Positions 1,766 through 20,937 of a DNA stretch of 32,000 bases are shown in pieces. Made by a program: the position numbers and the translations under genes. The DNA lies in the NCBI GenBank assembly GCA_001430755.1, contig CP013062.1, forward strand, positions 720,001-752,000. Reading direction: 5' to 3'. Origin of the DNA: Candidatus Peribacter riflensis. Its GTDB lineage: Bacteria > Patescibacteriota > Gracilibacteria > Peribacterales > Peribacteraceae. How positions within the stretch are numbered: the first letter of the stretch is position 1; every line of letters starts with the position of its first letter. Below the pieces are notes generated by a model. It was not told where the DNA came from, searched no databases, and saw nothing but the letters and a program-made list of their open reading frames with translations.

Positions 1766-1817
1766 TTAAGCCATATTCTTCAGTATTTTGGCTCTTTTGT
1801 AAATAGTTTTCACAGCT

Positions 1818-3512
1818 TCAGTAGACCTCTTTTAAGTAGCAATTTTCGCAATAAACCTTCTCCGGTTTGTCTGGCGGGTAGGTCGTCTCAATGGGTTTCT
1901 GGCACTTCATGCATTCCCGCTTCCAGAGCTTGCGGGGATTTCTGAGTGCAAGACGACGGTCGTAGCGCTCGTCGGGATGGAGCCGCGGCAGCGGAAGTTT
2001 CTGTCTCCGGTAGAAATCCAGCTCCTGTTTGAGAATCCGGAAAGGACGATGGGTGACGGGGCAGACAATCGCCCAGTTGATGACATCATCGGGAATGTCG
2101 TCTATGGAATCGGGCAGGCTGCCCGCGGGGATCGTTTTCTTCACTTCAGGATTCTTCTCCACGATCTTCCTCCAGTGGAAACCCCGCTCCTTCGCCTCGC
2201 GCTCGGTGAGCGGCATGTACTCGTGTGCCAGCGATTCGTTGTACCCGAATGGTGAGTATTGCGGCGGAAAGTAGAGTCCCCATTCCCCTCCCTTCTGCAT
2301 GTGTTCAATGATTTTTGGAACAAGCTGCTCGTACTCCTCTTTCGCATACTGCTTGTTGAAGATGCAGTACTGCTTGCGCTGCAGCCCCACGCACCCGAAA
2401 CAATCCTTGCAGTGGAAGCAGTACTCGCAGTAGAGCAGATTTTGGCTGTGGAAGACGAAAAGGCAGTAGGCCGTATTGTACGTCTCGATCGTTCCGAGGG
2501 TCTCGTACGCAAGCTCCGGCTTGATGTACATGTTCGAGCAGTCGTAATTATCCTTCACCTGCACTCCCACCGTCACGTACCGGCTGTCCTGGCTCTCATT
2601 CACGTCGTAGCAATCCTGGCAATGTTTGGAATTCTCGATGAAATCGCCCGTGCAGTGCTCGCTGTTCACGATGTTGGCATACCGATGGACCATCTTTTGC
2701 GCCATCTCCATCCACTGTTTCCGCATTGCCTCCATCTTTGCGAACGATCCATGCAACTCCCGGATTTTTCTCTCGTATTCTTCCTTGGAGAGCGGCTCAT
2801 TGAGAAAGTGATACTGCTTCTGGCGGAGATTGGAACAGAGGCAACAATTGCTGCATCCGCTCAAATTTGAGGAAAAGAAACAGTCGCTGCAATTCGTGGA
2901 GAAGGAAACGAAGGAGCAGTTGTAGGACTTGAAGACGCTGAAGCACTCGTAGCAGAGTTCGGAATTATACAAATAGGAACAGTCCACGCTGCTCTTACAG
3001 CTCTGCAGGAGTTTTCCGTAGTAGCAATCCTCGCAGTACTCCGAGGAATTGATGAGATAGCAGTTCCTGCAGTAGCCCGTGCCGGCGGTGTAATCGCAAT
3101 TTTCGTTCCCGATGACCATCGAGCCGAGGCGCGGAACAGCTTTGTGCAACTCGCCAAATTGCACGAAGAACGGACGGGAAAAATCAAAAGGACGACCGTG
3201 CTCCATAAAATCCCTGCCTTCAGCATTCCACTCCTCGTGCGTGTACACGGCATCCGGCGGCCCCCAAAGAGGCTCCTGATGATAGATGGAGACCATGTCC
3301 TTGCCCGTCAGGGTCGCCGTCCTGCGGTAGAAATTGCGCTCGTTCCTGTGGCACGTGCGGATCTTGAGACGGCAATCGGGGCAGTAGACGGGGAGCGGAG
3401 GATGGACCTTCGTTGCACCGAATGTGAATGTCATCTTGCACAGAAACTCCTCCTCATCGGGATGAACCGTGAAGGGTTGCTTGCACCAGGGATTGCGGCA
3501 TAGCTGTTGCAT
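1818..3512 (-). CDS. Cysteine-rich zinc-ribbon ladder protein, paralog 1 of 7 (no recognised family)
   Basis: 564-aa ORF with an ATG start (MQQLCRNPWCKQPF). It has an N-terminal CxxC...CPDC ribbon and two Cys ladders capped by CLCSNLRQKQYHFLNEPLSKEEY and CFGCVGLQRKQYCIFNKQYAKEEY. The C-terminus reads CMKC...YCENCYLKEVY. My hand count gives about 38 Cys. Homologous end to end with six other ORFs here. Confidence 0.92.
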   Translation of the reverse strand: MQQLCRNPWCKQPFTVHPDEEEFLCKMTFTFGATKVHPPLPVYCPDCRLKIRTCHRNERNFYRRTATLTGKDMVSIYHQEPLWGPPDAVYTHEEWNAEGRDFMEHGRPFDFSRPFFVQFGELHKAVPRLGSMVIGNENCDYTAGTGYCRNCYLINSSEYCEDCYYGKLLQSCKSSVDCSYLYNSELCYECFSVFKSYNCSFVSFSTNCSDCFFSSNLSGCSNCCLCSNLRQKQYHFLNEPLSKEEYERKIRELHGSFAKMEAMRKQWMEMAQKMVHRYANIVNSEHCTGDFIENSKHCQDCYDVNESQDSRYVTVGVQVKDNYDCSNMYIKPELAYETLGTIETYNTAYCLFVFHSQNLLYCEYCFHCKDCFGCVGLQRKQYCIFNKQYAKEEYEQLVPKIIEHMQKGGEWGLYFPPQYSPFGYNESLAHEYMPLTEREAKERGFHWRKIVEKNPEVKKTIPAGSLPDSIDDIPDDVINWAIVCPVTHRPFRILKQELDFYRRQKLPLPRLHPDERYDRRLALRNPRKLWKRECMKCQKPIETTYPPDKPEKVYCENCYLKEVY

Positions 3513-3532
3513 AGAATGCTAGTGTAGTTAAT

Positions 3533-3593
3533 TTTGTCATGGTGAGCACTGCCTGCCCGGCCGAGCCGTTCGGACGGGTCGAACCATGACAAA
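3533..3593. repeat. Intergenic hairpin module between paralogs 2 and 1
   Basis: A perfect 10-bp inverted repeat, tttgtcatgg (3533-3542) / ccatgacaaa (3584-3593), encloses a GC-rich self-pairing 41-nt core. It shares the blocks ttgtcatggtgagc, gtcgaacca and atgacaaac in the same order with 7915-7985. Confidence 0.7.
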
Positions 3594-3597
3594 CATA

Positions 3598-5247
3598 CTA
3601 ATAGACCTCTTTTAAGTAACACTCCTCGCAGTACACGATCTCCGGCCGCTCGGGCGCATACGTTGTTTCCATGGGTTTCTGGCATTTCATGCAATTGCGG
3701 CTCCAGAGACGGCGCGGATTGCGGCGCCAAATCCGCTCCAGATGGCGCTCGTCGAAGCACGCGCGGGGCAGCGGCAGGTGATGCTGACGGTAGAGAGCGA
3801 GCTCCTGCGGGATGATCTTGTAGGGCTTACCTGTGCGCTCGCAGGTGAGGATCTGCTCCGTGATGTCATCGGGAACGTCTTGGATATCAACAGGAAGAGA
3901 GAGGCGCGGCCCCTGGTAAGCGGATGTCTGGCTCTCGGTGTCCTCGCGCCACTTCCAGCCACGCTTGGCCGTATCATTCTTCGTGAGCGGAAAGTACTCC
4001 TGTGCCACGGTCTCGTTGTAGCCGAAAGGCGAGAGTTCCGCCGGAAGCGGCTGGCCCCACTCCCCTGTTTTCTTCATGTGCTCCACGATCTTCGCCTTCA
4101 GGCGCACGTACTCCTCTTCGGAGTACTGCTTGTTGAAGATGCAGAAGCGCTTCTTTTTCAGCCCCGAGCAGGCGAAGCAGTCCTCGCAGTACTGGCAGTG
4201 ATCCAGATATTGTGAATTCTTGGAGTAGAAGCTCACGAAGGTGAACTGGGTGTTATACTGGTTGATCGTAGAGATGGTCCCGTACGTCAGTTCGCAGCGA
4301 TCCACGACCACGTGACCGTCATAACAATCCTTCGACTTGAAGCTGAAGATCAGGTAGCCGCAATCCTCCAGATCCGCGCTGTCGTAGCACTCCACACAGT
4401 TCCTGCAGTGCACGATGTGGTCGCCCGTCACGTTCTCATTGCCGTTGCCGTCGATATACTGGTGGATCTGCTGCTTTCCGGCCTTCTTAAGAAAGACATC
4501 GCGGGCCGACGAGAGCGTGCGCATATTGCCCGTGTTGAGCTCACTGAGCTTCTTTGCGTACTCCTCTTTGGAATGCTGCTCATTGAAGATGCAATACTGC
4601 TTGTTCCGGAGCCCGAAACAACCGAAACAGTTGTGGCAACCCTTGCAGTCACTGAGGAAGAAGCTGTCACGGCAATTGTGCGACTTCTCGGAGTGGGCGA
4701 GGTTGTAGGACTCCGAGCAATCCACACACTCGATGCAGAGCTCGCACTTGAAGCAGTTCAGGCACTCGATGCAGCTTAAGCAACTGTCGATGCCATAGGA
4801 GTACAGGCAGTCCTCGTCGTGGTCCGAGACGAAGATCATGTGACAGTTCTTGTCCTGCTGCGCACCGTTCGTGTAATCACTGTTCACATTGTTGGAGGTA
4901 AAGACCGAGATCTTCGGCGTGACCTTCATGAGGGCATCGAACTGGGGGGAAAAAGGCCGGTTGAAATCGAAGTCACGACCATGTTCCATGGCATCCCATT
5001 TGTCGGTGTACCACTCGTGCTGATCGTAAACTTTGTAGGGACTGTCCGGCGCATAGACTGAAATGATCTGCTTGCCCGTGAGGTCGCACTTGCGGTGATA
5101 GAGTCGACGCTCGTTGCGCCACGCAAAACGCTCTTGGCGCCGGCACGTGGGGCAGAGAGTCGGATCAGGCAGTGAAACCTTCGTGAGGAATGAATGCTCC
5201 TGCGGCAAGACGGTGAAGGCCGATCGGCAGCGACGGCAGGTGCTCAT
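3598..5247 (-). CDS. Cysteine-rich zinc-ribbon ladder protein, paralog 2 of 7
   Basis: 549-aa ORF with an ATG start (MSTCRRCRSAF). Caps are CFGCFGLRNKQYCIFNEQHSKEEY and CFACSGLKKKRFCIFNKQYSEEEY. The C-terminus is CMKCQKPMETTYAPERPEIVYCEECYLKEVY. Confidence 0.92.
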   Translation of the reverse strand: MSTCRRCRSAFTVLPQEHSFLTKVSLPDPTLCPTCRRQERFAWRNERRLYHRKCDLTGKQIISVYAPDSPYKVYDQHEWYTDKWDAMEHGRDFDFNRPFSPQFDALMKVTPKISVFTSNNVNSDYTNGAQQDKNCHMIFVSDHDEDCLYSYGIDSCLSCIECLNCFKCELCIECVDCSESYNLAHSEKSHNCRDSFFLSDCKGCHNCFGCFGLRNKQYCIFNEQHSKEEYAKKLSELNTGNMRTLSSARDVFLKKAGKQQIHQYIDGNGNENVTGDHIVHCRNCVECYDSADLEDCGYLIFSFKSKDCYDGHVVVDRCELTYGTISTINQYNTQFTFVSFYSKNSQYLDHCQYCEDCFACSGLKKKRFCIFNKQYSEEEYVRLKAKIVEHMKKTGEWGQPLPAELSPFGYNETVAQEYFPLTKNDTAKRGWKWREDTESQTSAYQGPRLSLPVDIQDVPDDITEQILTCERTGKPYKIIPQELALYRQHHLPLPRACFDERHLERIWRRNPRRLWSRNCMKCQKPMETTYAPERPEIVYCEECYLKEVY

Positions 5248-5280
5248 ACGTGAGTAGAATTATTGAAAAAATGTGTACTG

Positions 5281-5309
5281 ATATTAAATATCACCTGTTA
5301 TTCAGTCAA
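5281..5309 (-). promoter_or_regulatory. Sigma70-like promoter for the paralog 2 / paralog 1 (and possibly ATPase) transcription unit
   Basis: The minus strand reads TTGACT (5309-5304), a 17-nt spacer, then TAATAT (5286-5281). It lies about 34 nt upstream of the ATG at 5247, inside a 156-bp AT-rich divergent intergenic region. Confidence 0.5.
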
Positions 5310-5347
5310 TACAATGAATTGCATAATGACGATATTTATATCTATAT

Positions 5348-5375
5348 TTGATTTATTGGCTCTTTCTCGTATATA
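5348..5375 (+). promoter_or_regulatory. Candidate promoter for the divergent TrmB-like regulator
   Basis: TTGATT (5348-5353), a 16-nt spacer, then TATATA (5370-5375). The ATG is at 5404. Confidence 0.35.
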
Positions 5376-5387
5376 CTATCTGTAGTA
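5374..5387. promoter_or_regulatory. Palindrome TACTA-N4-TAGTA, a candidate operator
   Basis: tacta (5374-5378), tctg, tagta (5383-5387) form a perfect inverted repeat between the candidate -10 and the regulator ATG. Confidence 0.3.
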
Positions 5388-5403
5388 ATATAATTACAAC
5401 AAG

Positions 5404-6165
5404 ATGGTCATCGCAGAACTTCAGGCACTCGGCTTACAACTGGAAGAAGCGAAGGTCTACTACGCGCTCCTGCAGCTCGGTGGTTCCTATGTGAGCGCGA
5501 TTGCGCGCAAGGCAGGCGTGCACCGCGTCGTCTGCTACAAGATTCTGGATGAGCTGGTTGCGAAAGGTTTGGTGAGTTCATTTCTGAAAAACGGGATCCG
5601 ACACTTCGCCATCGAGAGCCCTCTGATCCTCGTCCGCAAAGAGCAAGAGAAGCTCGAACGCGCCGAGAAGCTTCTGCCTGAACTGCTCTCAATCACCAAC
5701 GCACTCGCCTATAAGCCAAAGATCCAGTACTACGAGGGGCTGGAAGGCATGAAGAACATCTTCGAGGAAACACTCACGGCCAAGGGCGAATTACTCGGCT
5801 ACACGAATCTGGAAGACATCCCCAAAGTCATGCCAGAGGACTTTCTGCGTGACTATGCAAAGCGCAAAATCGCGAAAGGACTTAAGACGCGCATGCTCTC
5901 GCCCCATACGCCGCGGGCACTCAAGTATCTGGAAAAGTATTACCCGAGAGGATTTGATCCGAATCTGGTCGAAATCCTCTTCGTGAACCCGCGCGAATTC
6001 CACTTCGAGTACGAAATCACGATCTACGGCGAGAAGGTGGCGATCCTCTCGCTCAATCCGGAGGAACGCATGGGGCTGATCATCGAGAGTCCGATCTACG
6101 CGCGCACGCAGCGTGCGGTTTTTCAGTTGGCGTGGCTCGGAGCCACGAGCTTCGTGGCGAAGTAG
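5404..6165 (+). CDS. TrmB-family winged-helix transcriptional regulator (copy 1)
   Basis: 253 aa. The N-terminus LGLQLEEAKVYYALLQLGGSYVSAIARKAGVHRVVCYKILDELVAKGLV matches the TrmB wHTH pattern. The C-terminal domain is TrmB-like (YYEGLEGMKNIF...IYGEKVAILS). It is divergent from paralog 2 and convergent with paralog 3. Confidence 0.85.
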   Translation: MVIAELQALGLQLEEAKVYYALLQLGGSYVSAIARKAGVHRVVCYKILDELVAKGLVSSFLKNGIRHFAIESPLILVRKEQEKLERAEKLLPELLSITNALAYKPKIQYYEGLEGMKNIFEETLTAKGELLGYTNLEDIPKVMPEDFLRDYAKRKIAKGLKTRMLSPHTPRALKYLEKYYPRGFDPNLVEILFVNPREFHFEYEITIYGEKVAILSLNPEERMGLIIESPIYARTQRAVFQLAWLGATSFVAK

Positions 6166-6179
6166 CAGCAAGTTTTGGT

Positions 6180-6204
6180 AGCCGTGGTTCTTAGAACCCC
6201 GGCT
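6180..6204. terminator. Hairpin between convergent genes (possible bidirectional terminator)
   Basis: agccg-t-ggttc tta gaacc-c-cggct forms a 10-bp interrupted stem with a 3-nt loop. It sits between the stop of the regulator (6165) and the stop of paralog 3 (6212). Neither strand has a clear U-tract. Confidence 0.4.
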
Positions 6205-6211
6205 GCGGGAC

Positions 6212-7894
6212 TCAATAGATCTCTTTCAAATAGCACTCCTCACAGTACACGATTTCGGGCCGCTCGGGAGCATACGTCGTTTCCATAGGTTTCTGGCACT
6301 TCATGCACGGTCGTTCCCAGATTGTCCGCGGATTCTTGAGTGCCATGATCCTTCGATGCCGCTCGTCGGGATGGAAGTGGGGAATCGGGAGTTTCATCTT
6401 TCGATAGAGGTCCAGCTCCTGTCTGATGATCCTGAAGGGACGGCCGGTGGCGTCGCACTTGATGGCCCAGTTCACGATGTCGTCGGGAACTTCATCAATG
6501 GAATCCGGCAGTTTGGATGCGGGAATCACCTTCGCAACCTTCGGCATCTCGTCGTTCTCCTCGCGCCATCGCCATCCCCTCTTCTCCGCATCCTGCTTTG
6601 TGAGAGGGAAGAAATCCTGGGCGACGGATTCGTTGTAGGCATAGGGACTATTTTTTATGGGGAAGAATTCACCGTATTCACCATCGTGCTTCATCCGCTC
6701 AATGATCTTCGGCACCAGCAGCTCATATTCCTCCTTCGTGCACTGTTTGTTGAGAATGCAATACTGGCCGCGCGTGTGCAGTCCGTCGCATCCGAAACTG
6801 TCGGATTGGTAGAAGCAGGAGCTTAAGTAAAGGGAACGCGGGGAGGAGATGGTACAGTAGCAGAAACGCGTCAGATAGCTCTTTTCGCCGCCCGAAGACA
6901 TCTCGTAACAGAGCTCGATATCCTTGTCGTGCGAGGTCAAGTCCATGGAATCCTTTATGCCTTCGCACTCAAAGAGATATTTGGAGTCCTCAATGTTGAA
7001 ACAGTCGGAGCAGTGGATGGCATTGCGGCAATTGGCGAGGTACGCACCCGTGGATCCTTCGCAGTTGAGCTGGATTTGAGAGCGCTTGGGGACGGTCACG
7101 TCGAAGGCAGCAAACTCCTGCAGAAGATCATCCGGAGAAACAGACTGATAGCGCCGGAGGATCTCTTCGAACGCTTCTTTCGTCCTCTGCTCGTTCTTGA
7201 AACAGTACTGCCGGTTATGGATGCCGCTGCACATGAAGCAGTCTTTCACGCCCGAACAATCCCTCAGGTAACTACTGGAGGAACACTGGCGGCAATTCAC
7301 GAGGTGGTGCGCGCCGAAGCAGCCGTCGCAATTGGTACTATCCGCAGTCAGCTCGCAGCAGTTGAGTACATTGGAGTTGGCGCAATCTTTGCAGTACTGG
7401 CTCTTGCGGAGGTAGTAGCAGTCTTCGACGAAGTAGCTCCCCGGACACAGGTAGGCGTTCTTGCTGAAGGCAAGCAGAAGATTAAACTCGCAGTTTTCAT
7501 TGTTGAGTTGAAGAGCAGCGGCCTGCGGCACCCTGTGCTGCAGTTCCTCGAATTGAGCAAAGAAGGGACGGCTCAAGTCGAACTCCTGCCCGTACTGCAG
7601 AGGATCCCAGCGGTCTGACCACCAGCAATCCGTGCAATACACCGGAAAAGGAACATCGGGACCAAAAGAGGAAATGGTCATCTTCTGGCAGAGATCGCAC
7701 ACTCTCCGGTAGAGACAGTGTTCATTGCGGAAAGTCTGCCTGCGCTGCATCCGGCACTCCGGACACAGAGTCGGCGACGGAATCAGCTCCTTTTTGCCTG
7801 CATAGACCGGAGAAATCTCTTCGTAGAACTGGAGATCACTGTCGGTGATCTCGAAGGGCTGCTTGCACCACGTGTTTTTGCAGGTCTTCTGCAT
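6212..7894 (-). CDS. Cysteine-rich zinc-ribbon ladder protein, paralog 3 of 7
   Basis: The maximal ORF is 6212..7921 (569 aa, MTIVATLSLMQKTCKN...). I prefer the second Met at 7894 (MQKTCKNTWCKQPFEI). This aligns with the starts of paralogs 1 and 4. The 27 nt upstream are homologous to the out-of-frame 5' leader of paralog 1 (ccatgacaa...ctacact...ATGCA). Confidence 0.9.
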   Translation of the reverse strand: MQKTCKNTWCKQPFEITDSDLQFYEEISPVYAGKKELIPSPTLCPECRMQRRQTFRNEHCLYRRVCDLCQKMTISSFGPDVPFPVYCTDCWWSDRWDPLQYGQEFDLSRPFFAQFEELQHRVPQAAALQLNNENCEFNLLLAFSKNAYLCPGSYFVEDCYYLRKSQYCKDCANSNVLNCCELTADSTNCDGCFGAHHLVNCRQCSSSSYLRDCSGVKDCFMCSGIHNRQYCFKNEQRTKEAFEEILRRYQSVSPDDLLQEFAAFDVTVPKRSQIQLNCEGSTGAYLANCRNAIHCSDCFNIEDSKYLFECEGIKDSMDLTSHDKDIELCYEMSSGGEKSYLTRFCYCTISSPRSLYLSSCFYQSDSFGCDGLHTRGQYCILNKQCTKEEYELLVPKIIERMKHDGEYGEFFPIKNSPYAYNESVAQDFFPLTKQDAEKRGWRWREENDEMPKVAKVIPASKLPDSIDEVPDDIVNWAIKCDATGRPFRIIRQELDLYRKMKLPIPHFHPDERHRRIMALKNPRTIWERPCMKCQKPMETTYAPERPEIVYCEECYLKEIY

Positions 7895-7914
7895 CAACGA
7901 AAGTGTAGCAACAA

Positions 7915-7983
7915 TTGTCATGGTGAGCTCTGTCGAACCAGGACAATTCCAATGTCATCCTTCGACAGGGCTCAGGATGACAA
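7915..7983. repeat. Intergenic hairpin module between paralogs 4 and 3
   Basis: ttgtcatggtgagctctgtcgaa (7915-7937) pairs with ttcgacagggctcaggatgacaa (7961-7983) at 20 of 23 positions. An alternative perfect 7-bp hairpin is gtcatcc (7954-7960) / ggatgac (7975-7981). The module is homologous to 3533-3593. Confidence 0.65.
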
Positions 7984-7988
7984 ACGCG

Positions 7989-9680
7989 CTAATAGACCTC
8001 TTGTAAGTAACACTCCTCACAGTACACGATCTCCGGTCTTTCCGGCGCGTACGTGGTTTCGACAGGCTTCCGACACTTCATGCAGCTGCGGCTCCAGAGG
8101 CGGCGGGGATTACGAAGCGCCATGCGCTGACGGTGGCGTTCATCGGGATGGAAGTGCGGGACGGGAAGCTTCATCCTGCGATACAGATCCAGCTCCTGCC
8201 TCACGATCTTGAACGGACGTCCCGTTGCCTCGCAGGTGACCGCCCAGTTGAGAATGTCATCGGGAACATCGTCGATGGAGGCCGGCAGTTTCTCAGCCGG
8301 AATCGTCCTGCTTACCGAAAGCTGCTCCTGCTTCTCTTCCTTCCACGGAAATCCCCTCTTTCGGGCTTCGGACGGCGTGAGCGGGAAGAACATGTGCGCC
8401 GTCGTCTCGTTATAGGCGAACGGAGCGACACCAGCCGGAAAGAACTCACCCCACTCACCGTTCTTCCTCATGAGCTCGATCACCCGGGGGACAAGCTCCC
8501 CGTATTCCTTCTGCGTGTACTGCCTGTTGAGCACGCAGTACCTGCCGGGCTTCATACACACGCACCCGCACATGTCCGATCCTGTCTGAATGATGTCGCA
8601 GTAGAGCAGGTTCTTCGACCCCCATGACCCGTGTGTGAAGAGTGCGTTGTAGGAGCCGTACCCGAGGCTCAGGGAGTCGTACCCGAGCTCGGCATCCGTC
8701 GTGTGGCACACATCCATGAGGTCTTTGATCTGAAATCCCGTGAAGATGTAGGAGCAATCCTCTCCGTATGAGACATCGAAGCAGTGACGGATGTTCTTGG
8801 AATCCTTGAGGTAATCCCCCGTCACGTTGTCACAGCTCACCACCTCGCGCGCACGGTGGATACTCTGCTCTTTGAGGGCGGAAAACTCCCGCAGCACCTC
8901 CGCGAGTCCCCCGCCCGCCACGCGATCCATGATTTCCTTCTTCAGGCGCAGATATTCCTCCTGCGGATACTCCCGGTTGCGGATGACATTTCGCTTATTG
9001 CGCAGATTGGTGGAGAGCAGACACTCGGTGCAGCCTTTGCAATCGAAGAGGAAGGCGGAAGAGGAACAATTCGTGCAATTTTGTGAGAAGGAGAGCGAGT
9101 GGCACTTGTCGACATCGGTCACCTCGAAGCAGTAGTGCGATTCGGTGCAATCCACGGTGTCCACGCATCCGGTGGATTTGATGACCTGATACCCATACAG
9201 ACAATCCTCGTTAAATTCCGCAGCAAAGATCAGGTAGCAGTTCTTGTTACTGCCGGAGTGATTGATGAAATCGGAATTCTCGTTATTCACCACGTTGAGC
9301 GCCATGCGTGGCACGGCATTCTGGAGCTCTTTGACCTGAGCAAAGAACGGACGGTTAAAATCTACTGCGCGACCGTACGTGAGCGGATCGTTTTTGTCGG
9401 ACCACCAGCACTCCGTGCAGTAGACGGGAAACGCCGAACCGGCAGGGTACATCGAAATGATGGATTTCTTACATAGATCGCACGTCCTGCGATACAGACT
9501 GCGCTCGTTCCTCCAGAAAAGCCGGCGCTGCTGCCGGCAGTCGGGGCAGAGAGTCGGAGGAGGAATGGAAAATTTTTTGCCCCCGAAGACGGGAGAGAGC
9601 TTGTCGAGAAGGGCAAGGTCATCCTGCGTGACCTCGAAGGGAGTGCCGCACTGTGAACAGGACTTCTGCACGACCTCCAC
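7989..9680 (-). CDS. Cysteine-rich zinc-ribbon ladder protein, paralog 4 of 7
   Basis: 563-aa ORF whose first start is GTG at 9680 (VEVVQKSC). A second GTG at 9671 would give MQKSCSQCGTPFEV, matching the paralog 1 and 3 starts. The C-terminus is CMKCRKPVETTYAPERPEIVYCEECYLQEVY. Confidence 0.9.
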   Translation of the reverse strand: MEVVQKSCSQCGTPFEVTQDDLALLDKLSPVFGGKKFSIPPPTLCPDCRQQRRLFWRNERSLYRRTCDLCKKSIISMYPAGSAFPVYCTECWWSDKNDPLTYGRAVDFNRPFFAQVKELQNAVPRMALNVVNNENSDFINHSGSNKNCYLIFAAEFNEDCLYGYQVIKSTGCVDTVDCTESHYCFEVTDVDKCHSLSFSQNCTNCSSSAFLFDCKGCTECLLSTNLRNKRNVIRNREYPQEEYLRLKKEIMDRVAGGGLAEVLREFSALKEQSIHRAREVVSCDNVTGDYLKDSKNIRHCFDVSYGEDCSYIFTGFQIKDLMDVCHTTDAELGYDSLSLGYGSYNALFTHGSWGSKNLLYCDIIQTGSDMCGCVCMKPGRYCVLNRQYTQKEYGELVPRVIELMRKNGEWGEFFPAGVAPFAYNETTAHMFFPLTPSEARKRGFPWKEEKQEQLSVSRTIPAEKLPASIDDVPDDILNWAVTCEATGRPFKIVRQELDLYRRMKLPVPHFHPDERHRQRMALRNPRRLWSRSCMKCRKPVETTYAPERPEIVYCEECYLQEVY

Positions 9681-9797
9681 TGTAAGCGAGACGAGCGGAT
9701 GAGCAACTCAAAAGAGTCTTCATGGAGAAATGAGTGGAATAGGGCTCCAGTAAGCCATTTTCAGAGATCGGATATTCTCAGATTCCTGTGAAGATCT

Positions 9798-10598
9798 TTA
9801 CGCTCCGACGCCATTCCCCCACATCCGCTCGAACTGGTCGCGGTAGAGCGCAACCATTTCGGGATGCCGGATGATGACCACCCGTGGATGCTCCTGATCG
9901 CAGATAAAGTGGCGGACATGATCTTTGGTGTACCCCAGGTAATCCCTTGCAACGGGGATCGTGTCTACAAGGCGTGTGGTTCGCAGCTCCTTACTGTCAC
10001 GTTTGGCAAATGTTTCGGATTCGGGGGAATGTGTGTTGAAAACGCGGCAGAACATGTTCCGGCTGAAACGCTTGTGGCGGAACGCCAGCTCCTCGGGCGC
10101 TTCGTCGGACATGCCGGCGATATTCCAGTAATTCTGCATCGATCCCATGCACAGAAACTCATCATCGCAAAAATCGGGAATTTTGAGGTACTCTTCCCGG
10201 AACGCATCCAACCCTTCGCGCACCTCGATCATTTCCCCATCCGTGTTACGGACATCAGCAGATTCCATGCGATCCAGAAACGGCAGGAACCGGTCGAGAT
10301 CCTGCAATGCAAGCTGCACGCGACGAAGTACACGTTGCTCGGTACCAAGTTTTTGAATGAGACCCTTCAGCGTGAGCGGTGCGTACACCGATTGCTTGCG
10401 GTTCACCTTGAGCGCCTGCACCAGTCCCCGATCCTCAAGACGCTTCATGGTCCGGTAGGCCGTCATCACATTGATTCCGCTCCCGCCGATCAGCTTCGGC
10501 ATGGCCGCGCGCTTGTGCTTGAGGAGCTCAAGGTACAGGGTCACCTCCTCTTCACGGAGGCCAGAGAGCCGTAGCAGATCCTGGAGTCTTCGGCGCAT
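9798..10598 (-). CDS. TrmB-family winged-helix transcriptional regulator (copy 2)
   Basis: 266 aa with an ATG start. LSGLREEEVTLYLELLKHKRAAMPKLIGGSGINVMTAYRTMKRLEDRGLV matches the TrmB wHTH pattern. It is co-directional with the array and sits between paralogs 5 and 4. Confidence 0.8.
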   Translation of the reverse strand: MRRRLQDLLRLSGLREEEVTLYLELLKHKRAAMPKLIGGSGINVMTAYRTMKRLEDRGLVQALKVNRKQSVYAPLTLKGLIQKLGTEQRVLRRVQLALQDLDRFLPFLDRMESADVRNTDGEMIEVREGLDAFREEYLKIPDFCDDEFLCMGSMQNYWNIAGMSDEAPEELAFRHKRFSRNMFCRVFNTHSPESETFAKRDSKELRTTRLVDTIPVARDYLGYTKDHVRHFICDQEHPRVVIIRHPEMVALYRDQFERMWGNGVGA

Positions 10599-10641
10599 GG
10601 GGAAAGTATAGAAGACGGAAAGAGGATGTAAAGTTAAGTTG

Positions 10642-12294
10642 TCAATACACCTCCTTCAAGTAGCACGCCTCGCACAAAATCCTCCCGTCATACTCCTTGG
10701 GCCAGCTCGTCTGCGTTTCTTTCTTACACTTCCCGCACGCCATTGTCCGGAGCTCGCCATTGAAGGGAATCAGGCGGAAATTCTCCTGCAATCTTCGCAT
10801 GTAGTACGTATACGGAAGCGGAACCTTCAAATCCTGCGCGAAAACCACATCCTCTTGAAGAATTTGGAAGGGACGACCGGCAACCGGATCCCAGTAGGGC
10901 GACGTGGTCACGGATTCATCTGCATGATCACTGCGATCGGGGACTTCGGAGGCATCCCGCGTGTCCGACTCACGGTGCTCTTCCCTCTCGCGCATCCGAA
11001 ACCCTCTCTTCTTCCCCTCTGCGGTCATCATCGGCCAGACGAAACCTGCCAGACTCTCTTCGTAAGGATTTGCTGCAAAGTGTGGCGGAAAAAATTGGCC
11101 GTATTCACCCGTCTTCTTCATTGCCGCAATCACTTCTGCCTTTTTTCGCTCGAATTCCTTGGGTTCATAGGGCTTGTTAAAAATGTGATATTCCTTTCCC
11201 ACGAGCCCGCAGCAACCGAAGCAGTGCTTGCATTGGAAACACTGCGCGCAGTACTCCATATACTTGCACTGCATGACGTTGTAGCCGAATTTCACGTCAT
11301 AGCATTTGTCCTGCGGCTCGGTCGATCCGTACACGAGTTCCGATCCTACGGCGGCACACACGGTATCCAGGCAATCCTTGCCGCCGAATCCGCGAAACAC
11401 ATGCATACAATCCTCCAGTTCGTCGACGAAGAAGCAGTTCGTACATCCCTTGCTTGAGTAGATGTAATTGGAATCGCCACACTCCTGGCACTGATCCATG
11501 AAGATAGCGCGGTGCCAGGCATTCTCTTTCAGCATCTTCCCGAATTCCTTCTTCGCGTGCTCATAGACGGCGCGCGACCGCAGATCCCAGGACTCAAGAC
11601 GCTTCTTATATTCCTCCTTCGTCAGCTGCTGATTGGCGAAGCAGTACGACTTGTTGCGAAGATTGGTGCAGAAGAAACAGTGATTACAGTTGCGGCAGTC
11701 GTAGAGGAACGCGCTCTCCGTACACTGCCAGCAATTCAGCGTGAACACGGAGCGAAAACACAGATGACTGTTGATGAGGTCAACGGAACGTTCACTATCG
11801 TAGGAGAAGACACCGAATTGGCTGTTCTTCACGTTAAAGACCCGGTAGCAGTAACGAAGATCTTCGTCGTTCAGTCCTGAGTGGCAGAGATAGCAGTTCT
11901 TGCTGTACCACCAGTCATCCGTGTACTCACAATTCTCATTGCCCGTCCCCACATTGTGCGCAATGGGGCAGCACCGGAAAAGCTCCCACATCTGCGGGAA
12001 AATCGGCTTGGTGAGATCGACCTCCGCGGAAGGTGGATCGGCATGCTTGATCCACTCATCCTTGTGCCACACGGGGTAGGGACAGTCCTGCGAAAAGACA
12101 GAAACGATCTGCTTACCGGTCTTATCACATTTCCGTTTGTGCAGCGCCCAGTGCTGCCAGAAAGCGCCGAGGATCTGCCAACGCGCAATCGGGTGGAGAG
12201 AGGGCTCACCCTCAATACCAAGCTTCTTTCTAAGCTCCATCTCGGCAGGAGCCACCTCGAATGTTTTGCCGGTGACGGGGCAGATTTTCGGCAT
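10642..12294 (-). CDS. Cysteine-rich zinc-ribbon ladder protein, paralog 5 of 7 (most divergent)
   Basis: 550 aa with an ATG start (MPKICPVTGKTFEV). It keeps the caps (CFFCTNLRNKSYCFANQQLTKEEY, CFGCCGLVGKEYHIFNKPYEPKEF) and the C-terminus CGKC...ILCEACYLKEVY. The N-terminal CPxC knuckle is lost (LHPIARWQ). Confidence 0.9.
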   Translation of the reverse strand: MPKICPVTGKTFEVAPAEMELRKKLGIEGEPSLHPIARWQILGAFWQHWALHKRKCDKTGKQIVSVFSQDCPYPVWHKDEWIKHADPPSAEVDLTKPIFPQMWELFRCCPIAHNVGTGNENCEYTDDWWYSKNCYLCHSGLNDEDLRYCYRVFNVKNSQFGVFSYDSERSVDLINSHLCFRSVFTLNCWQCTESAFLYDCRNCNHCFFCTNLRNKSYCFANQQLTKEEYKKRLESWDLRSRAVYEHAKKEFGKMLKENAWHRAIFMDQCQECGDSNYIYSSKGCTNCFFVDELEDCMHVFRGFGGKDCLDTVCAAVGSELVYGSTEPQDKCYDVKFGYNVMQCKYMEYCAQCFQCKHCFGCCGLVGKEYHIFNKPYEPKEFERKKAEVIAAMKKTGEYGQFFPPHFAANPYEESLAGFVWPMMTAEGKKRGFRMREREEHRESDTRDASEVPDRSDHADESVTTSPYWDPVAGRPFQILQEDVVFAQDLKVPLPYTYYMRRLQENFRLIPFNGELRTMACGKCKKETQTSWPKEYDGRILCEACYLKEVY

Positions 12295-12386
12295 GGAATA
12301 TGTGTTTAGTATACCTATTTCTTTTAATGGTGTTTGGGAGAATGAAGCAGTACGAATTATGAATAATGCATGGTCGAAGCACCTTC

Positions 12387-12414
12387 ATTCTTAATTCTTA
12401 ATTCTTTATTCTCC
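12387..12414. repeat. Heptamer tandem repeat (ATTCTTA x4, degenerating)
   Basis: attctta attctta attcttt attctcc abuts the TAA stop of paralog 6 (12415-12417). It is preceded by ccttcat (12382-12388). Confidence 0.8.
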
Positions 12415-14112
12415 TTAATAGACTTCCTTCAGGTAGCACTCCTCGCACAACACGGTTTCCTTGCGCTCAGGCGAGAACGTGGACTCCATTGCCTTGCCGC
12501 ACGCGGAGCACGGCCGATTCCAGAGCCGGCGGGGAGGACGCAATGCTGTTCTTCGATCCTGCCGCTCCTCCGGATGCAGGTGCGGGAGCGGGAGATCATG
12601 CACACGGTAGAACGCGAGCTCCTGCTTCACGATGCGGAAGGGGCGGCCGGATACTGCGGATGTCACCGCCCAGTTCAGGATATCATCGGCCTTCGCCAAG
12701 GCTACGGCCGACGAGTCGGGAATTTCCGCGATTGTTTCCGGTAATTTCGCCGCGGCGATGACTTTTTGCACGTCCGGCTTCTCATCCGATTCATCGCGCC
12801 ACGGATAGCCGCGCTTGAGAGCCTCATCTTTGCTTAGAGGGAAGTACTCCATGGCAATCGACTCGTTGTAGGCAAAGGAACTCATGCTCTTGGGGAAGAA
12901 TTCCCCGTACTCTCCGGCTTTCTTCATATGAGCGATGAGTTTTTCGCGCAGTTTCTCGTACTCATCTTTCGTGTACTGCGTATTCAGAATGCAATACTGC
13001 TTCTTCTTCAGGCCCACGCAGCCGAAGCAATTTTTGCATCCCGTACAGCTGTCCAAATATTCGCAATCGCTCATATTCGTCGTGCACATGGTCGAGAATT
13101 TCAGATTGTAGACGTTGTTGCCGCATGCACCGCACTGGTACGCACGCTCCACATTATCGCCCCAGAAGGTGTAATCCATGGAAGACTTCACCCCCATGGA
13201 AACCCGCTGACAGTAGCGGCAATCCTCCAGATCCTTACAGTCCATGCAATAGAAGGCATTGCGGGTGTTACTGATGTGATCGCCCGTCGAGTGCTCATTG
13301 TGCTCGCCCTGCACGTAGCGCTGCGGCTGGGCGCGGAAGAATTCCGTCACGTTCTTTCTCACCATGGCGATGCCGGAGGAGGTATCGAGCCTGAGGGTCG
13401 TTTTCCGCTTCTCGTATTCCTCTTTCGTGAGCTGTTCATTCAGGATCATGAACCGTTTCTGGCGCTGATTGGCGCAAGCGATGCAGTCACGGCATCCGAT
13501 ACAACTTTTGAGGAAGTAACTGTCCGAACAATTGTGACAGTCCTGTGAAAAAAACAGGCTGTGACAATCGATGCAATCCAAACACTCGTAGAGAATTTCA
13601 CTCTTATGACAATTGAAGCAATCCACCATGTCCTTGCAGTGGTAGACACGGTTTGAGTAGAGACAATCCTCAACGTAATCCGCTTCCGCGATCAGGTAAC
13701 AGTTTTTGGAATACCCCGCATTGTTCACATAGTCGCTGTTCACCATCGTCCCCTGAATCACGAAACGCGCCTGATGAGGAACGCGATTCCTGAGCTCCAT
13801 GAATTGTTCAAAGAACGGACGGGAAAAATCGATGTCCTGCCCGTACGTGAGCGCGTCCCAGCCATCACCCCACCACGCTTCGGGGCTAAAGACCGGAAAG
13901 GGATGATCGGCGTGAAACTGCGACAGAATCCGCTCCCCCGTGAGGTCGCACGTTCTCCAGTAAAGCTTGCGGGAATTGCGCTCGAGCAGGCGCCGCCGGA
14001 GCCGGCACTCGGGACACGATTGAGGAGCGGGAACTTCAAAATCATCCAAAAACCTCTGATCATCCGAAGAAATTTCGAAACTCGAGCCGCATTCGACGCA
14101 CTTTCCAAGCAT
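12415..14112 (-). CDS. Cysteine-rich zinc-ribbon ladder protein, paralog 6 of 7
   Basis: 565 aa with an ATG start (MLGKCVECGSSFEI). Caps are CIACANQRQKRFMILNEQLTKEEY and CFGCVGLKKKQYCILNTQYTKDEY. The C-terminus is CSACGKAMESTFSPERKETVLCEECYLKEVY. Its start lies only 3 nt downstream of the paralog 7 stop. Confidence 0.92.
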   Translation of the reverse strand: MLGKCVECGSSFEISSDDQRFLDDFEVPAPQSCPECRLRRRLLERNSRKLYWRTCDLTGERILSQFHADHPFPVFSPEAWWGDGWDALTYGQDIDFSRPFFEQFMELRNRVPHQARFVIQGTMVNSDYVNNAGYSKNCYLIAEADYVEDCLYSNRVYHCKDMVDCFNCHKSEILYECLDCIDCHSLFFSQDCHNCSDSYFLKSCIGCRDCIACANQRQKRFMILNEQLTKEEYEKRKTTLRLDTSSGIAMVRKNVTEFFRAQPQRYVQGEHNEHSTGDHISNTRNAFYCMDCKDLEDCRYCQRVSMGVKSSMDYTFWGDNVERAYQCGACGNNVYNLKFSTMCTTNMSDCEYLDSCTGCKNCFGCVGLKKKQYCILNTQYTKDEYEKLREKLIAHMKKAGEYGEFFPKSMSSFAYNESIAMEYFPLSKDEALKRGYPWRDESDEKPDVQKVIAAAKLPETIAEIPDSSAVALAKADDILNWAVTSAVSGRPFRIVKQELAFYRVHDLPLPHLHPEERQDRRTALRPPRRLWNRPCSACGKAMESTFSPERKETVLCEECYLKEVY

Positions 14113-14115
14113 CGA

Positions 14116-15804
14116 TCAATATACTTCCTTCAAATAGCATTCCTCGCAATAGACGATCTCGGGCCGCTCCGGCGCATAGGTCGTTTCGATCCCCTTCTTG
14201 CACTTGGCACACTGGCGCTTCCAGAGCTTATAGGGGTTGCGCGAAGCCATTCTCTGCTTATGGCGCTCATCGGGATGCAAATGCGGCACGGGGAGCTGCA
14301 TCTTCCGGTAGAAATCCAATTCCTGTTTGACGATCTGAAACGGGCGAGCCGTCGCCTCGCACACGATGGGCCAATTGAGGATGTCGTCGGGAACACCGGC
14401 AATATCCTCCGGCAGCTTGTGGCCGGGAATTGTCTTCCCTGTCTTGGGAGCCTCTTCTGTCTCGTCGCGCCAGCGCCACCCATTCTGCATGGCAGATTCT
14501 TTCGTGAGCGGGAAGTACTCCTGAGCGATGGTTTCGTTGTACGCAAAAGGACTGAGGTCTGCCGGCAGGTACTCGCCCCACTCGCCGCTGGCACGCATCG
14601 ATGCAATGATTTTCGCCACCAGATTTTCGTACTCGTCCTTTGTATACTGCTTATTCAGGATGCAGTAGCGTTTATTCTTGAGCCCCACGCAGCCGAAAAT
14701 ATTACTATTATGGTGACACTCGAGCGAATAGTAGATGTTGGATCCGTACCAGACGTAGAAACAGGCCATCGATGATTCCAGATCGACCGTGGAACAGACG
14801 CTGTAGCAGTACCGGTCTCCATCCGGAGCGCAAAAAGCACAGTCCTGCGTGCAGAGGGTTTTCGGCGCAAAGTAAACGTTTCGGCAATCTTCACAGTCCT
14901 TGCAGTCGAAGGCGTTCGAGCAATTTTTGGAATTGTACACACTGTCCCCCGTGCAGTTTTCGGAAGCATAGATGTGCGCATGTGGGTGGGGCAGTGATGC
15001 CTTGATTTCAGAGAGCGTCTGCCGAAGATAGCCGATGCCCCCCTGGGAAAGCGCGGAATATTCCTTTGTAAGGCGTGCGTACTCCTGCGCTGAATACTGC
15101 TTGTTGAAGATGCAGTACTGCTTCGCCCGCAAGCCGAAACAACCGATGCAATCGGTGCAGCCCAGACAGTCTTCGATCATCGTGCAGTTGCGACAGTTCC
15201 GGCAATTCACGAAAAACCGGCAGCCGTAGCACTGCTCGGATGCCACACCCTCGTAACAGAGTTCGCTGGAGTACACCGCCAGACAGTCAACGCAGTCTTT
15301 ACAGTACACCACGAATTTCCCGTAGAGGCAGTCTTCGTTGTCCCCTGCACCGAAGATCAGGTAACAGTTCTTCTGGTTCAAGGCATAGTTCGTGTAGCTG
15401 CTGTTCTCGATATTCGTGTTATACAGGCCGACATGGGGAACTTCCGCATACAGCTCTCTGAGCTGCTGTCGCATCGTCTTGGAAAAGTCGTATGCACGAC
15501 CATAGGAGAGCGCCTCCCATTGGTCCCCCCACCATGCATCGCGGTCGTAGACCTTATACGGCATATCCGGAGCATAGATGGAGAGGATGGGTTTGCCGGT
15601 CAGGTCGCAGGTGCGGCGGTAGAGCTTGCGCTCATTGCGAAAAGAAAGGCGCAGTTGTTGTCTGCATTGCGGGCACCGCGTCGGCGGTGGAATGAGCTGT
15701 TTCAAACCACTGAAGACCGGTGAAACACTTTCGTAAAACGTGAGATCCCCCTCTGCGATCTCGAAGGGCTGCTTGCACCAGCCGTTGCGGCAAATCTGCT
15801 CCAC
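14116..15804 (-). CDS. Cysteine-rich zinc-ribbon ladder protein, paralog 7 of 7
   Basis: The maximal ORF is 14116..15870 (584 aa), with a TTG start inside the M23 peptidase gene. A GTG at 15804 gives (M)EQICRNGWCKQPFEI. That aligns with the other paralog starts, gives 562 aa, and removes the 41-nt overlap. Confidence 0.88.
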   Translation of the reverse strand: MEQICRNGWCKQPFEIAEGDLTFYESVSPVFSGLKQLIPPPTRCPQCRQQLRLSFRNERKLYRRTCDLTGKPILSIYAPDMPYKVYDRDAWWGDQWEALSYGRAYDFSKTMRQQLRELYAEVPHVGLYNTNIENSSYTNYALNQKNCYLIFGAGDNEDCLYGKFVVYCKDCVDCLAVYSSELCYEGVASEQCYGCRFFVNCRNCRNCTMIEDCLGCTDCIGCFGLRAKQYCIFNKQYSAQEYARLTKEYSALSQGGIGYLRQTLSEIKASLPHPHAHIYASENCTGDSVYNSKNCSNAFDCKDCEDCRNVYFAPKTLCTQDCAFCAPDGDRYCYSVCSTVDLESSMACFYVWYGSNIYYSLECHHNSNIFGCVGLKNKRYCILNKQYTKDEYENLVAKIIASMRASGEWGEYLPADLSPFAYNETIAQEYFPLTKESAMQNGWRWRDETEEAPKTGKTIPGHKLPEDIAGVPDDILNWPIVCEATARPFQIVKQELDFYRKMQLPVPHLHPDERHKQRMASRNPYKLWKRQCAKCKKGIETTYAPERPEIVYCEECYLKEVY

Positions 15805-15829
15805 AGAAGGCAGAGTAGCAGAATCCCGG

Positions 15830-16366
15830 CTAGGCGCCCGTCGTGTTCTTAATGACCTGATTCGCCGCAAAGGTCATGGAGAGGTACGGCTGCGCAGCCG
15901 GCGTGAATTGCGCATGCTGGTGCAGGTTCTGCTGTTGCCAGAGCCTGGTCACTTCAGAGCAGTCCATCGCCCCATCGTAGCCGTTCTCTTTGTTCTGGAC
16001 GACGCCGTTCTTGAGGAGCTTGAATGTCCAGTGCAGGTGCGGGCCGGTGGAGCTGCCGGTATTGCCGCTCAACGCGACCGGATCGCCCTGCGAGATGGGC
16101 TGCCCGTTCTTCACGGTGACCTGTGAGCAGTGGGCAAGGACGCTGCGGCGCGTGGGGCCGTCGATGACCACGTACTTGCCGTAGCCTGTCGCCCCGTCAT
16201 CCTTCACCGTTACAACACCGTCATGCGGCGCGAAGATCTTCGTGTCCTCGGGCACACCGAAATCGAACCCGTTGTGACCGAGCCAGCCGTACTGCTGGTA
16301 GATCTCTTTATTCTGACCGAAACCCTGCGTGACGGTGGGCGTACCGGGGAGCGGAGAGAAAATCAC
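15830..16366 (-). CDS. M23 (LytM-type) metallopeptidase, no signal peptide seen
   Basis: 178 aa with a GTG start. The M23 signatures HNGFDF (HxxxD) and SGNTGSSTGPHLHW (HxH) are both present. It lies immediately upstream of paralog 7. Confidence 0.85.
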   Translation of the reverse strand: MIFSPLPGTPTVTQGFGQNKEIYQQYGWLGHNGFDFGVPEDTKIFAPHDGVVTVKDDGATGYGKYVVIDGPTRRSVLAHCSQVTVKNGQPISQGDPVALSGNTGSSTGPHLHWTFKLLKNGVVQNKENGYDGAMDCSEVTRLWQQQNLHQHAQFTPAAQPYLSMTFAANQVIKNTTGA

Positions 16367-20860: not shown

Positions 20861-20937
20861 GGACGATTAGCTCAGCTGGTTAGAGCGTGCGGTTCACATC
20901 CGCAAGGTCACTGGTTCGAATCCAGTATCGTCCACCA
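20861..20937 (+). tRNA. tRNA-Val(CAC): tRNA-Val (anticodon CAC), CCA encoded
   Basis: Hand-folded cloverleaf. Acceptor GGACGAT/ATCGTCC has 7 perfect pairs. D stem is GCTC/GAGC. Anticodon stem TGCGG/CCGCA carries loop TTCACAT. The variable loop is AGGTC. T stem ACTGG/CCAGT carries loop TTCGAAT. Discriminator A is followed by CCA. Confidence 0.95.

Follow-up and report, generated by a model that had tools for sequence, protein, structure and literature searches.

In the present study, we analysed a stretch of 32,000 nucleotides (the window) of the tiny genome of the groundwater bacterium Candidatus Peribacter riflensis (contig CP013062.1, positions 720,001 to 752,000) and found that its largest feature, an array of seven tandem paralogous genes, belongs to a protein family, here given the working name Z, whose members appear from sequence comparison to be ancient, individually conserved and constrained paralogs, and not a fast-evolving conflict family. 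Their products show what we describe, from their aligned sequences, as a new mirror-duplicated arrangement of zinc ribbons and solenoid-like domains. Nothing among the characterised families and described systems corresponds to the Z proteins or to the cluster that their genes form with TrmB-like regulators and an ATPase of the T4SS (type IV secretion system) type. Zinc ribbons, solenoids, TrmB regulators and T4SS ATPases are each familiar, and we rate their combination as lying outside the known kinds.

The Z gene array

The seven Z genes all lie on the minus strand (1818-3512, 3598-5247, 6212-7921, 7989-9680, 10642-12294, 12415-14112 and 14116-15804) and encode proteins of 549-569 aa, as seen in the list of open reading frames (ORFs) and in an alignment made with MAFFT. 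Apart from one start codon, these are the seven paralogous ORFs that an earlier reading of the DNA (the original prediction) had listed, and their sum of 11.8 kb (37% of the window) agrees with its figure of about 12 kb, or over one third. The alignment is collinear from the first Cys knuckle to the common C-terminus CxxCYL(K/Q)E(V/I)Y and has 54 invariant columns, which bears out the proposed end-to-end homology. Pairwise identity among the paralogs is 27-48% over about 550 aa (BLASTP), the outlier being the copy at 10642-12294, with 27-32% identity to the others, and Z homologs reach E 1e-268 in profile searches, far beyond chance.

Most of the shared features that had been ascribed to the seven proteins were recovered. 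The C-x2-C-Y-L-(K/Q)-E-(V/I)-Y ending ahead of the stop codon was found in 7/7, and the spacing of 3 to 120 nt between genes was confirmed. Since no 19-residue window in the Z proteins exceeds a Kyte-Doolittle value of 1.25, no transmembrane (TM) segment or signal peptide is evident, as had been stated. Both copies of a 22-residue "cap" motif are present in 7/7, but the first is degenerate in 4/7, with 6-7 mismatches in the ORFs at 1818, 6212, 7989 and 12415. An N-terminal Cys knuckle, claimed for every copy, has been lost from 10642-12294, where the ligands read C-T-H-A; this copy is nevertheless still under purifying selection, judging from its ortholog (88% identity; ratio of non-synonymous to synonymous substitution rates, dN/dS, 0.065). 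Finally, the most upstream copy had been placed at a TTG at 15870, whereas it most likely begins at the GTG at 15804 (562 aa), because the family N-terminus and the published gene call both agree with this start: the published ORF 666, its stop counted, is 563 codons long, and its end corresponds to 15804.

Conservation and selection

We then examined how the individual copies have evolved. Orthologs in other genomes are 81-93% identical to the Z proteins of the window, compared to 27-48% among the paralogs themselves, and the dN/dS of the seven ortholog pairs is 0.055-0.107 (Nei-Gojobori, with dS near saturation for some pairs). Besides the outlier copy, this holds for 1818-3512 (81% to its ortholog in locus L009, dN/dS 0.09, in an orthogroup of 39 members from 39 genomes), 3598-5247 (93%, 0.07), 6212-7921 (83%, 0.11), 12415-14112 (82%, 0.055) and 14116-15804 (85%, 0.087). 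Clustering at 55% identity gave essentially single-copy clusters of 39 members in 39 genomes, 17 in 17, 14 in 13, 12 in 12 and 11 in 11. Within genomes, the median identity of Z pairs is 41% and only 0.1% of the pairs exceed 70%, so there have been no recent amplifications. The synteny, including the pairing of TrmB genes with particular paralogs, is kept across the phylum. Searches for mobile or viral relatives returned one trivial Z match in 2.9 million viral contigs and no counterpart in 50,697 phage genomes (tblastn), and PADLOC-DB gave no significant match for the Z proteins (best E 0.011).

The original prediction had taken the array for a contingency or conflict family (immunity, effector or decoy genes) with conserved termini and divergent cores. 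The contrast between termini and cores is there, but only mildly so, with a mean column conservation of 0.62-0.73 in the termini against 0.53 in the cores. The conflict reading itself is unsupported because the orthologs are single-copy, dN/dS is low, recent duplicates are lacking and links to mobile elements or matches to defence systems were not found; the conserved synteny likewise speaks against it.

Domain architecture of the Z proteins

Profile-profile comparison of sub-alignments gave the domain order A-B-helix-B'-L-A'. Module A (residues 3-80) matches A' (468-545) with a probability of 99.4% and E 6e-22, and B (residues 114-238) matches B' (264-388) with a probability of 99.9% and E 1e-34 (hhalign). 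These two internal duplications give the protein its mirror-like order: the homologous modules A and A' are basic and of the double zinc-ribbon/treble-clef type, and the homologous domains B and B' are acidic, rich in Cys and solenoid-like, with the cap, a strand-helix motif, closing each of them. The mean charge is +2.5 for A, +6.8 for A' and -5 for each B domain, and the whole proteins are acidic (isoelectric point, pI, 5.6-6.7). The most conserved segments are L and A', that is, the C-terminal 160 aa or so, with a nearly invariant C-terminus.

Module A consists of two CxxC...CxxC ribbons with an Arg-rich helix between them, the Arg-rich stretch of the zinc-ribbon modules reading CRxQRRxxxRNERxLYxRxC. 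The ligands have decayed in a complementary way, with the N-terminal A retaining ribbon 1 and the C-terminal A' retaining ribbon 2. Among 101 sequences, ribbon 1 of the N-terminal module is intact in 98-99% and ribbon 2 of the C-terminal module in 100%, while ribbon 1 of A' is intact in none and shows the ligand pattern C-T-H-E. Each Z protein contains 33-41 Cys (6-7% cysteine), including a C-x2-C-x2-C-x2-C cluster at the B1 end (positions 201-210, 86-96% Cys) that is incomplete in 2/7 copies. The B domains are predicted to form coils of short strands, with small or Cys residues in a strict three-residue register. An AlphaFold2 (AF2) model of the protein encoded by 3598-5247, in which both the A/A' and the B/B' duplications are seen, has a mean predicted local distance difference test score (pLDDT) of 84 and a predicted TM-score (pTM) of 0.86.

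A few proteins depart from this arrangement. A 94-aa protein, P0269, encoded on a Peribacteraceae contig of 5,970 bp, appears to join the N-terminal half of A to the C-terminal half of A' and has all eight Cys ligands; either a recombinational deletion between A and A' produced it, or it represents a true double-ribbon gene of minimal size. Matches of 85-180 aa were considered as possible ancestral forms in which A or L-A' stands alone, and those inspected were fragments: one gene on a Gracilibacteria contig is split, presumably through recoding of UGA (code 25), another has decayed within an array, and a third is cut off by an insertion sequence (IS) element. They were therefore discarded as evidence of an independent module. 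Two longer proteins, either of which could be a merged gene call, are P0258 (731 aa), with a GNAT acetyltransferase-like motif, seen by eye, ahead of a complete Z protein, and P0170 (808 aa), a Z protein that lacks the C-terminal ribbon and has an extension of about 250 aa whose end looks by eye like a helix-turn-helix (HTH). As Rosetta-stone fusions (GNAT-Z and Z-winged HTH), these isolated cases are too rare for interpretation.

Comparison with known families

Whole Z proteins and the B domain alone were scanned against Pfam, NCBIfam, PADLOC and PHROGs, and sequence profiles were searched against the PDB. Beyond its last 30 or so residues, Z is not covered by any Pfam, NCBIfam or PDB family, and the sole match above threshold in the family scans was that of B to phrog_15341 (a PHROG of unknown function, E 1.6e-9). 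The profile and structure searches therefore support the description of an uncharacterised, cytoplasmic, cysteine-rich zinc-ribbon family without a known catalytic motif or a family name, and no description of the Z family was found in the literature.

The only recurrent profile matches lie in the last 30 or so residues of Z, C519-x2-C522-x17-C540-x2-C543, which have exactly the ligand spacing of PF23477 (zf_Tbcl_2, a "probable treble clef" zinc finger) and TIGR04272. However, the Z scores are under the curated cut-offs (at best 23.7 versus 27 bits for Pfam and 21.9 versus 36 bits for TIGR04272), the PF23477 match spans about 5% of the protein, and the Z ribbon is one half of a duplicated module of about 80 aa with an Arg-rich helix, joined to two solenoid domains. 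A few Z homologs elsewhere bear a precomputed PF23477 match. Small proteins of M. mazei with the spacing C-x2-C-x17-C-x2-C bind zinc, as determined by inductively coupled plasma mass spectrometry (PMC12704099), and by analogy with this shared spacing we infer that the Z ribbons may bind zinc as well. The LIM domain (PF00412) is matched at profile positions 29-57 only, with at most 18.5 versus 22.9 bits, so that the full two-finger profile is not attained; matches to LIM structures of CRP proteins in the PDB (E at least 6e-4 across 30 residues) reflect a likeness to the second LIM finger.

For B, the best structural and sequence neighbours, none of them significant (Foldseek E at least 1.5; hmmsearch E 0.02), are the left-handed beta-helix (LbH, hexapeptide) acyltransferases and the antifreeze beta-helix of Tenebrio molitor (PDB 1ezg). 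Unlike the acyltransferases, Z lacks catalytic residues, its B domains have no invariant His and Hexapep gives no match at E up to 5, and unlike the antifreeze protein Z is apparently cytoplasmic, not secreted and disulfide-bonded. Ferredoxin-type [4Fe-4S] proteins are no closer, as Z has no Fer4 match and the B1 cluster, without a Pro, differs from C-x2-C-x2-C-x3-C-P.

Distribution, genomic context and published annotation

A search with the family profile found more than 6,590 Z proteins in a collection clustered at 90% identity, and 5,430 clusters at 50% identity, of which 2,371 have E of 1e-30 or lower. The named sources are only Peribacter, Peribacteraceae, Peregrinibacteria or unclassified Patescibacterium, and Z also occurs on a Gracilibacteria contig. 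A scan of one genome per GTDB species gave 317 Z-encoding stretches, and the 69 loci retrieved from these belong to the same taxa. Z was thus found only in genomes labelled Peregrinibacteria, Peribacteria or Gracilibacteria, within the candidate phyla radiation (CPR).

At least two Z copies, all co-oriented, are present in 63 of 72 loci, and the copy number ranges from 7-8 in this genome to at least 15-17 elsewhere. TrmB genes accompany the co-oriented arrays in other genomes, in line with the suggested co-occurrence of the two, and the layout of Z, TrmB and ATPase genes is also found in the Gracilibacteria contig and in a 1.37-Mb genome. A link to M23 peptidases, on the other hand, did not prove general: this genome has such a gene 25 nt upstream of the array, but no other gene family (M23 peptidase, permease or glutaredoxin-like) recurs in more than 5 of the 72 loci.

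A metagenome-assembled genome (MAG) of Candidatus Peribacter riflensis includes a contig, DNSX01000008.1, to which the first 17 kb of the window are 100% identical. With a constant offset of 720,086, the gene coordinates correspond to ORFs 657-669 of the closed genome RIFOXYC2_FULL_PER-ii_58_32 (Anantharaman et al. 2016, PMC4736985, supplementary table 2), in which the array ends after the ATPase gene. That annotation gives every Z gene an entry of its own, of one of three kinds, among them "hypothetical protein" with spurious, sub-threshold KEGG Orthology (KO) assignments, and the Z genes appear neither in the table of Cys-rich proteins nor in the text; the published reference genome did not treat them as one family.

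A T4SS-type ATPase linked to the array

The gene that flanks the array (2-1765, minus strand) is part of this conserved cluster as well. The edge of the window truncates it to its 5' 588 codons, and in the identical MAG record it encodes 747 aa. The translation contains a Walker A (GKSGVGKS) and a Walker B motif (VDEFQ) and passes the Pfam thresholds for DUF87 (the HerA central domain) and T4SS-DNA_transf (PF02534, cut-off 20.1: the fragment in the window scores 22.6 bits and the full-length ortholog 44.7 bits). The full-length ortholog also exceeds the cut-off for TrwB_AAD_bind (30.1 versus 20.5 bits), and a match to TrwB in the PDB has E 1e-4. An AF2 model of residues 1-320 (pLDDT 86, pTM 0.83) has TrwK/VirB4 of R388 as all of its top 14 PDB neighbours in Foldseek (E 4e-6 to 5e-4, probability 1.0, query-normalised TM-score, TMq, 0.41-0.52). 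No TM segment (maximum Kyte-Doolittle value over 19 residues, 1.0) and no match to CagE_TrbE_VirB, the VirB4 profile in Pfam, were found in this ATPase. Hence, the T4SS-type Pfam matches, the absence of a TM segment and the modelled N-domain identify it as a soluble ATPase of the T4SS type, in which a VirB4-like N-domain is joined to a motor resembling VirD4/TrwB/HerA. It has the P-loop domain of the type IV coupling proteins (VirD4/TraD/TrwB) but differs from them in lacking an N-terminal membrane anchor, in having Z, TrmB and unrelated genes as neighbours, and in having no channel components nearby.

The link of the array to a "TraD-like" ATPase, one of the associations proposed at the outset, proved real and strong, with a co-oriented Z gene directly upstream of the ATPase gene in 21/25 cases. 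Across Peregrinibacteria, Gracilibacteria and Abawacabacteria, the motor domain of this ATPase hardly varies. The published assignment of the ATPase is K06915/COG0433, the TraC/VirB4 assignment sitting on another ORF; this canonical VirB4/TraC homolog is a separate gene, ORF 599, about 55 kb away. In PADLOC-DB, the ATPase matches mad8 at E 3e-9 and HerA weakly. A survey of 2,918 Patescibacteria genomes counted 5,713 VirD4-like genes, 148 of them near virB4, and suggested exaptation (PMC12102498); it makes no mention of Z-like neighbours. Distant homologs of the ATPase occur in jumbo Bacillus phages (G, 0305phi8-36 and CP-51-like; 21-24% identity over 69-85%, phrog_5156 at E 5e-68), with 23% identity over 85% for gp156 of phage G (locus L081, 10261-14403, gp155-gp156). 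A link of the array to phages through the ATPase was considered and rejected, as the neighbour gp155 in phage G is a VirB4-like ATPase and not Z-like.

TrmB regulators and intergenic elements

Two TrmB-like regulators had been recognised within the array, one divergent from it and one co-directional, and both exceed the Pfam TrmB cut-off of 25.6 bits. The divergent gene, Ta (5404-6165, plus strand), scores 47.5 bits, and the co-directional gene, Tb (9798-10598, minus strand, 266 aa), scores 37.8 bits (E 1.7e-9); the two proteins are only 19% identical (BLASTP). Both have the winged helix and the dimerisation helix of TrmB (PF01978; Thermococcus/Pyrococcus TrmB, PDB 3qph), and no match to its sugar-binding domain was found for their C-terminal 100 or so residues. 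The match to 3qph is confined to residues 6-149 (E 0.023), the scores for the NCBIfam equivalogs TrmB and TrmBL1 are far under the cut-offs, and in PADLOC-DB the TrmB genes match only generic HTH parts of CasR/Csa3.

We next looked at the intergenic regions. A predicted TrmB operator, O1 (5381-5401), is a 21-bp palindrome, TGTAGTAAT-ATA-ATTACAACA, with a TATAAT-like centre, and ends 2 nt ahead of the Ta start codon. Of 29 unique divergent TrmB/Z intergenic regions, most have an 18-21-bp palindrome with TGT/ACA ends directly next to the TrmB start codon; its inner arms vary by lineage yet remain complementary (TGTAGTAA..TTACTACA, TGTTCTTC..GAAGAACA, TGTCGAAT..ATTCGACA), and in 55% of the 29 regions the arms are perfect over at least 6 bp, compared to 12% of shuffled controls. 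This covariation of the arms between lineages points to the palindromes being TrmB operators at the TrmB genes' own promoters. A second element (5281-5313, minus strand) contains a TGTATTGAC block that is kept in orthologous intergenic regions, with a perfect palindrome in loci L003 and L032. Upstream of Tb, a promoter-like TTTACA-16-TATACT (10632-10605) is conserved in loci L005-L008; since a scan for sigma-70 promoters gave no more sites than shuffled sequence, only conserved sites are cited here.

Between Z genes, hairpins of the types TTTGTCATGG...CCATGACAAA and TGTCATCC...GGATGACA recur, in the window at 3533-3593 (GTCATGG/GTCATCC-type, also seen in the arrays of other genomes) and at 7953-7982, and elsewhere in loci L009, L019, L021 and L060. 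In the arrays of Peribacteria they look like a repeat family of the repetitive extragenic palindrome (REP) or terminator type. The intergenic scan also returned an element at 12339-12391, and an Rfam scan found no RNA family within the array.

Proposed role and alternative explanations

As no catalytic family or motif was found in Z, we propose, tentatively and at well under even confidence, that the Z proteins have no enzymatic function and act together with the linked ATPase as binding or scaffold proteins stabilised by zinc. A fixed set of Z proteins would work with the ATPase, either as specificity adaptors or as partner subunits that it handles. The conserved basic terminal modules, especially the L-A' end, might serve as a common docking or nucleic-acid-binding element, and the divergent solenoid surfaces might give paralog-specific recognition, while the TrmB proteins would repress their own genes and the adjacent Z sub-operons. 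Several observations weigh against this proposal. The link between Z and the ATPase is one of gene order only; the eighth Z copy of this genome stands by itself, about 45 kb away from the array, and in one Abawacabacteria genome no Z genes adjoin the ATPase gene. The phage homologs of the ATPase are paired with a VirB4-like ATPase (gp155 before gp156 in phage G) and not with a Z-like protein. The assignment of B as a solenoid relies on the non-significant Foldseek matches and on a model with pLDDT 61-87 in B, and the proposal offers no explanation of why 7 to 17 adaptors would be required.

The alternatives are taken here in falling order of our estimate of their probability. It is possible, though doubtful, that the Z proteins bind nucleic acids autonomously, through their two basic zinc-ribbon modules, as chaperones of DNA or RNA, as regulators or as nucleoid proteins, the neighbouring ATPase being functionally unrelated or only loosely related to them. 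The basic, Arg-rich zinc-ribbon modules, most of all A' with its charge of +6.8, the weak LIM/treble-clef and zinc-finger similarity, and the singleton copy distant from the ATPase would fit, but the whole proteins are acidic and have large acidic solenoid domains, dedicated TrmB regulators are already there, no known nucleic-acid-binding family scores above threshold, and the 21/25 adjacency to the ATPase would then need another explanation. By analogy with other T4SS, Z proteins could also be translocated cargo or effectors, recognised by the ATPase through the C-terminal L-A' and delivered to the hosts of a presumed episymbiont, which we regard as unlikely. The T4SS-family ATPase encoded beside several Z paralogs with a common conserved C-terminal region recalls VirD4 of Xanthomonas and its effectors, whose XVIPCD domain would be the counterpart of L-A', and multi-copy arrays of divergent VirB2 pilins lie next to virB4 and T4SS ATPases in Patescibacteria (PMC12102498); the family of the ATPase, the conservation of the Z C-terminus and the M23 peptidase gene upstream of the array are in keeping with such a role. 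However, the strong purifying selection and 1:1 orthology of Z are atypical of effectors and set it apart from both precedents, no immunity-like partner genes accompany it, and the lack of a signal peptide and of a TM segment shows that the Z proteins are not pilins. Moreover, the ATPase lacks a membrane anchor, channel genes are missing from its neighbourhood, the canonical VirB4 being about 55 kb away, and tightly folded zinc proteins are secreted poorly. Rather improbable, in our view, is a hetero-oligomeric structural assembly of fixed stoichiometry, such as a cytoskeletal or scaffold polymer of stacked beta-solenoids. Its subunits would be expected to be ancient, single-copy per genome and co-regulated, as the Z paralogs are, the central domains are solenoid-like, and the complementary degeneration of the ligands suggests that A and A' pair; but the Z copy number differs between genomes, which disfavours a fixed complex.

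A function in metal or redox chemistry, as carriers of Zn or Fe-S at multiple sites or as thiol buffers, could draw on the abundant cysteines, the conserved cluster at the B1 end and the glutaredoxin-like gene nearby, and we consider it quite improbable. The conflict family under diversifying selection is very unlikely and largely refuted: the tandem multi-copy layout, the somewhat more divergent cores and the weak match of B to phrog_15341 are outweighed by the dN/dS values, the single-copy orthogroups, the conserved synteny and the near absence of Z from viral sequences. It is extremely unlikely that the Z proteins are LbH acyl- or acetyltransferase-like enzymes acting on amino sugars made by Peribacteria. 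All top Foldseek matches in the PDB are indeed LbH acyltransferases (PglD, VioB, CysE and GlmU), but these are non-significant, with TM-scores of at most 0.1 and root-mean-square deviations of 9-18 Å, Hexapep and a conserved catalytic His are missing, and the Cys periodicity is 3, not that of a hexapeptide. Finally, the possibility that the array is an assembly artefact of collapsed or chimeric repeats, or a spuriously multiplied single-copy housekeeping gene, is refuted: the copies are only 27-48% identical, which makes collapsed repeats impossible, an independent assembly and the published closed genome both carry the array at 100% identity, and comparable arrays occur in more than 50 independent assemblies.

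Other features of the window

Outside the array, the gene at 28101-31286 (minus strand) encodes a protein of 1061 aa in which a hydrophobic segment at the N-terminus is combined with 10 repeats of DUF4215 (Myxococcus-type, Cys-rich). It agrees in length and position with ORF 679 ("pappalysin-1; hypothetical", 67 Cys, 1061 aa), which stands in the published table of Cys-rich, mostly predicted-exported Peribacter proteins. The only Rfam family match in the window is a tRNA gene at 20861-20934 (plus strand, 70 bits). Plus-strand ORFs lie opposite the ATPase and Z genes (38-658, 770-1387 and many of 80-330 aa across 1800-15900); their translations are His/Leu/Glu/Arg-rich and low in information, and we take them to be antisense shadow ORFs, not genes.

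Significance

The streamlined genomes of Peregrinibacteria (about 1.25 Mb in one closed assembly) keep 7 to at least 17 large Z paralogs under strong purifying selection, and by our own calculation these genes, at about 1.7 kb each, amount to roughly 1-2.5% of the genome. In genomes so streamlined, nearly every retained gene should be needed. The covarying TrmB operators offer an immediately testable regulatory circuit, and the ATPase partner of Z is one of the thousands of VirD4-like ATPases that occur as orphans in Patescibacteria, and what these do is acknowledged to be an open question (PMC12102498). It is conceivable, though we doubt it, that the Z array, the TrmB regulators and the orphan VirB4/VirD4-like ATPase form an unrecognised ATP-driven machine specific to Peregrinibacteria and Gracilibacteria, with the 7 to 17 Z proteins as the receptors or cargo of an exapted T4SS motor. 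If so, the machine might handle DNA or proteins exchanged with the host of these presumed episymbionts. Identifying the binding partners of the Z proteins would probably show the role of the ATPase in a whole class of uncultivated bacteria.

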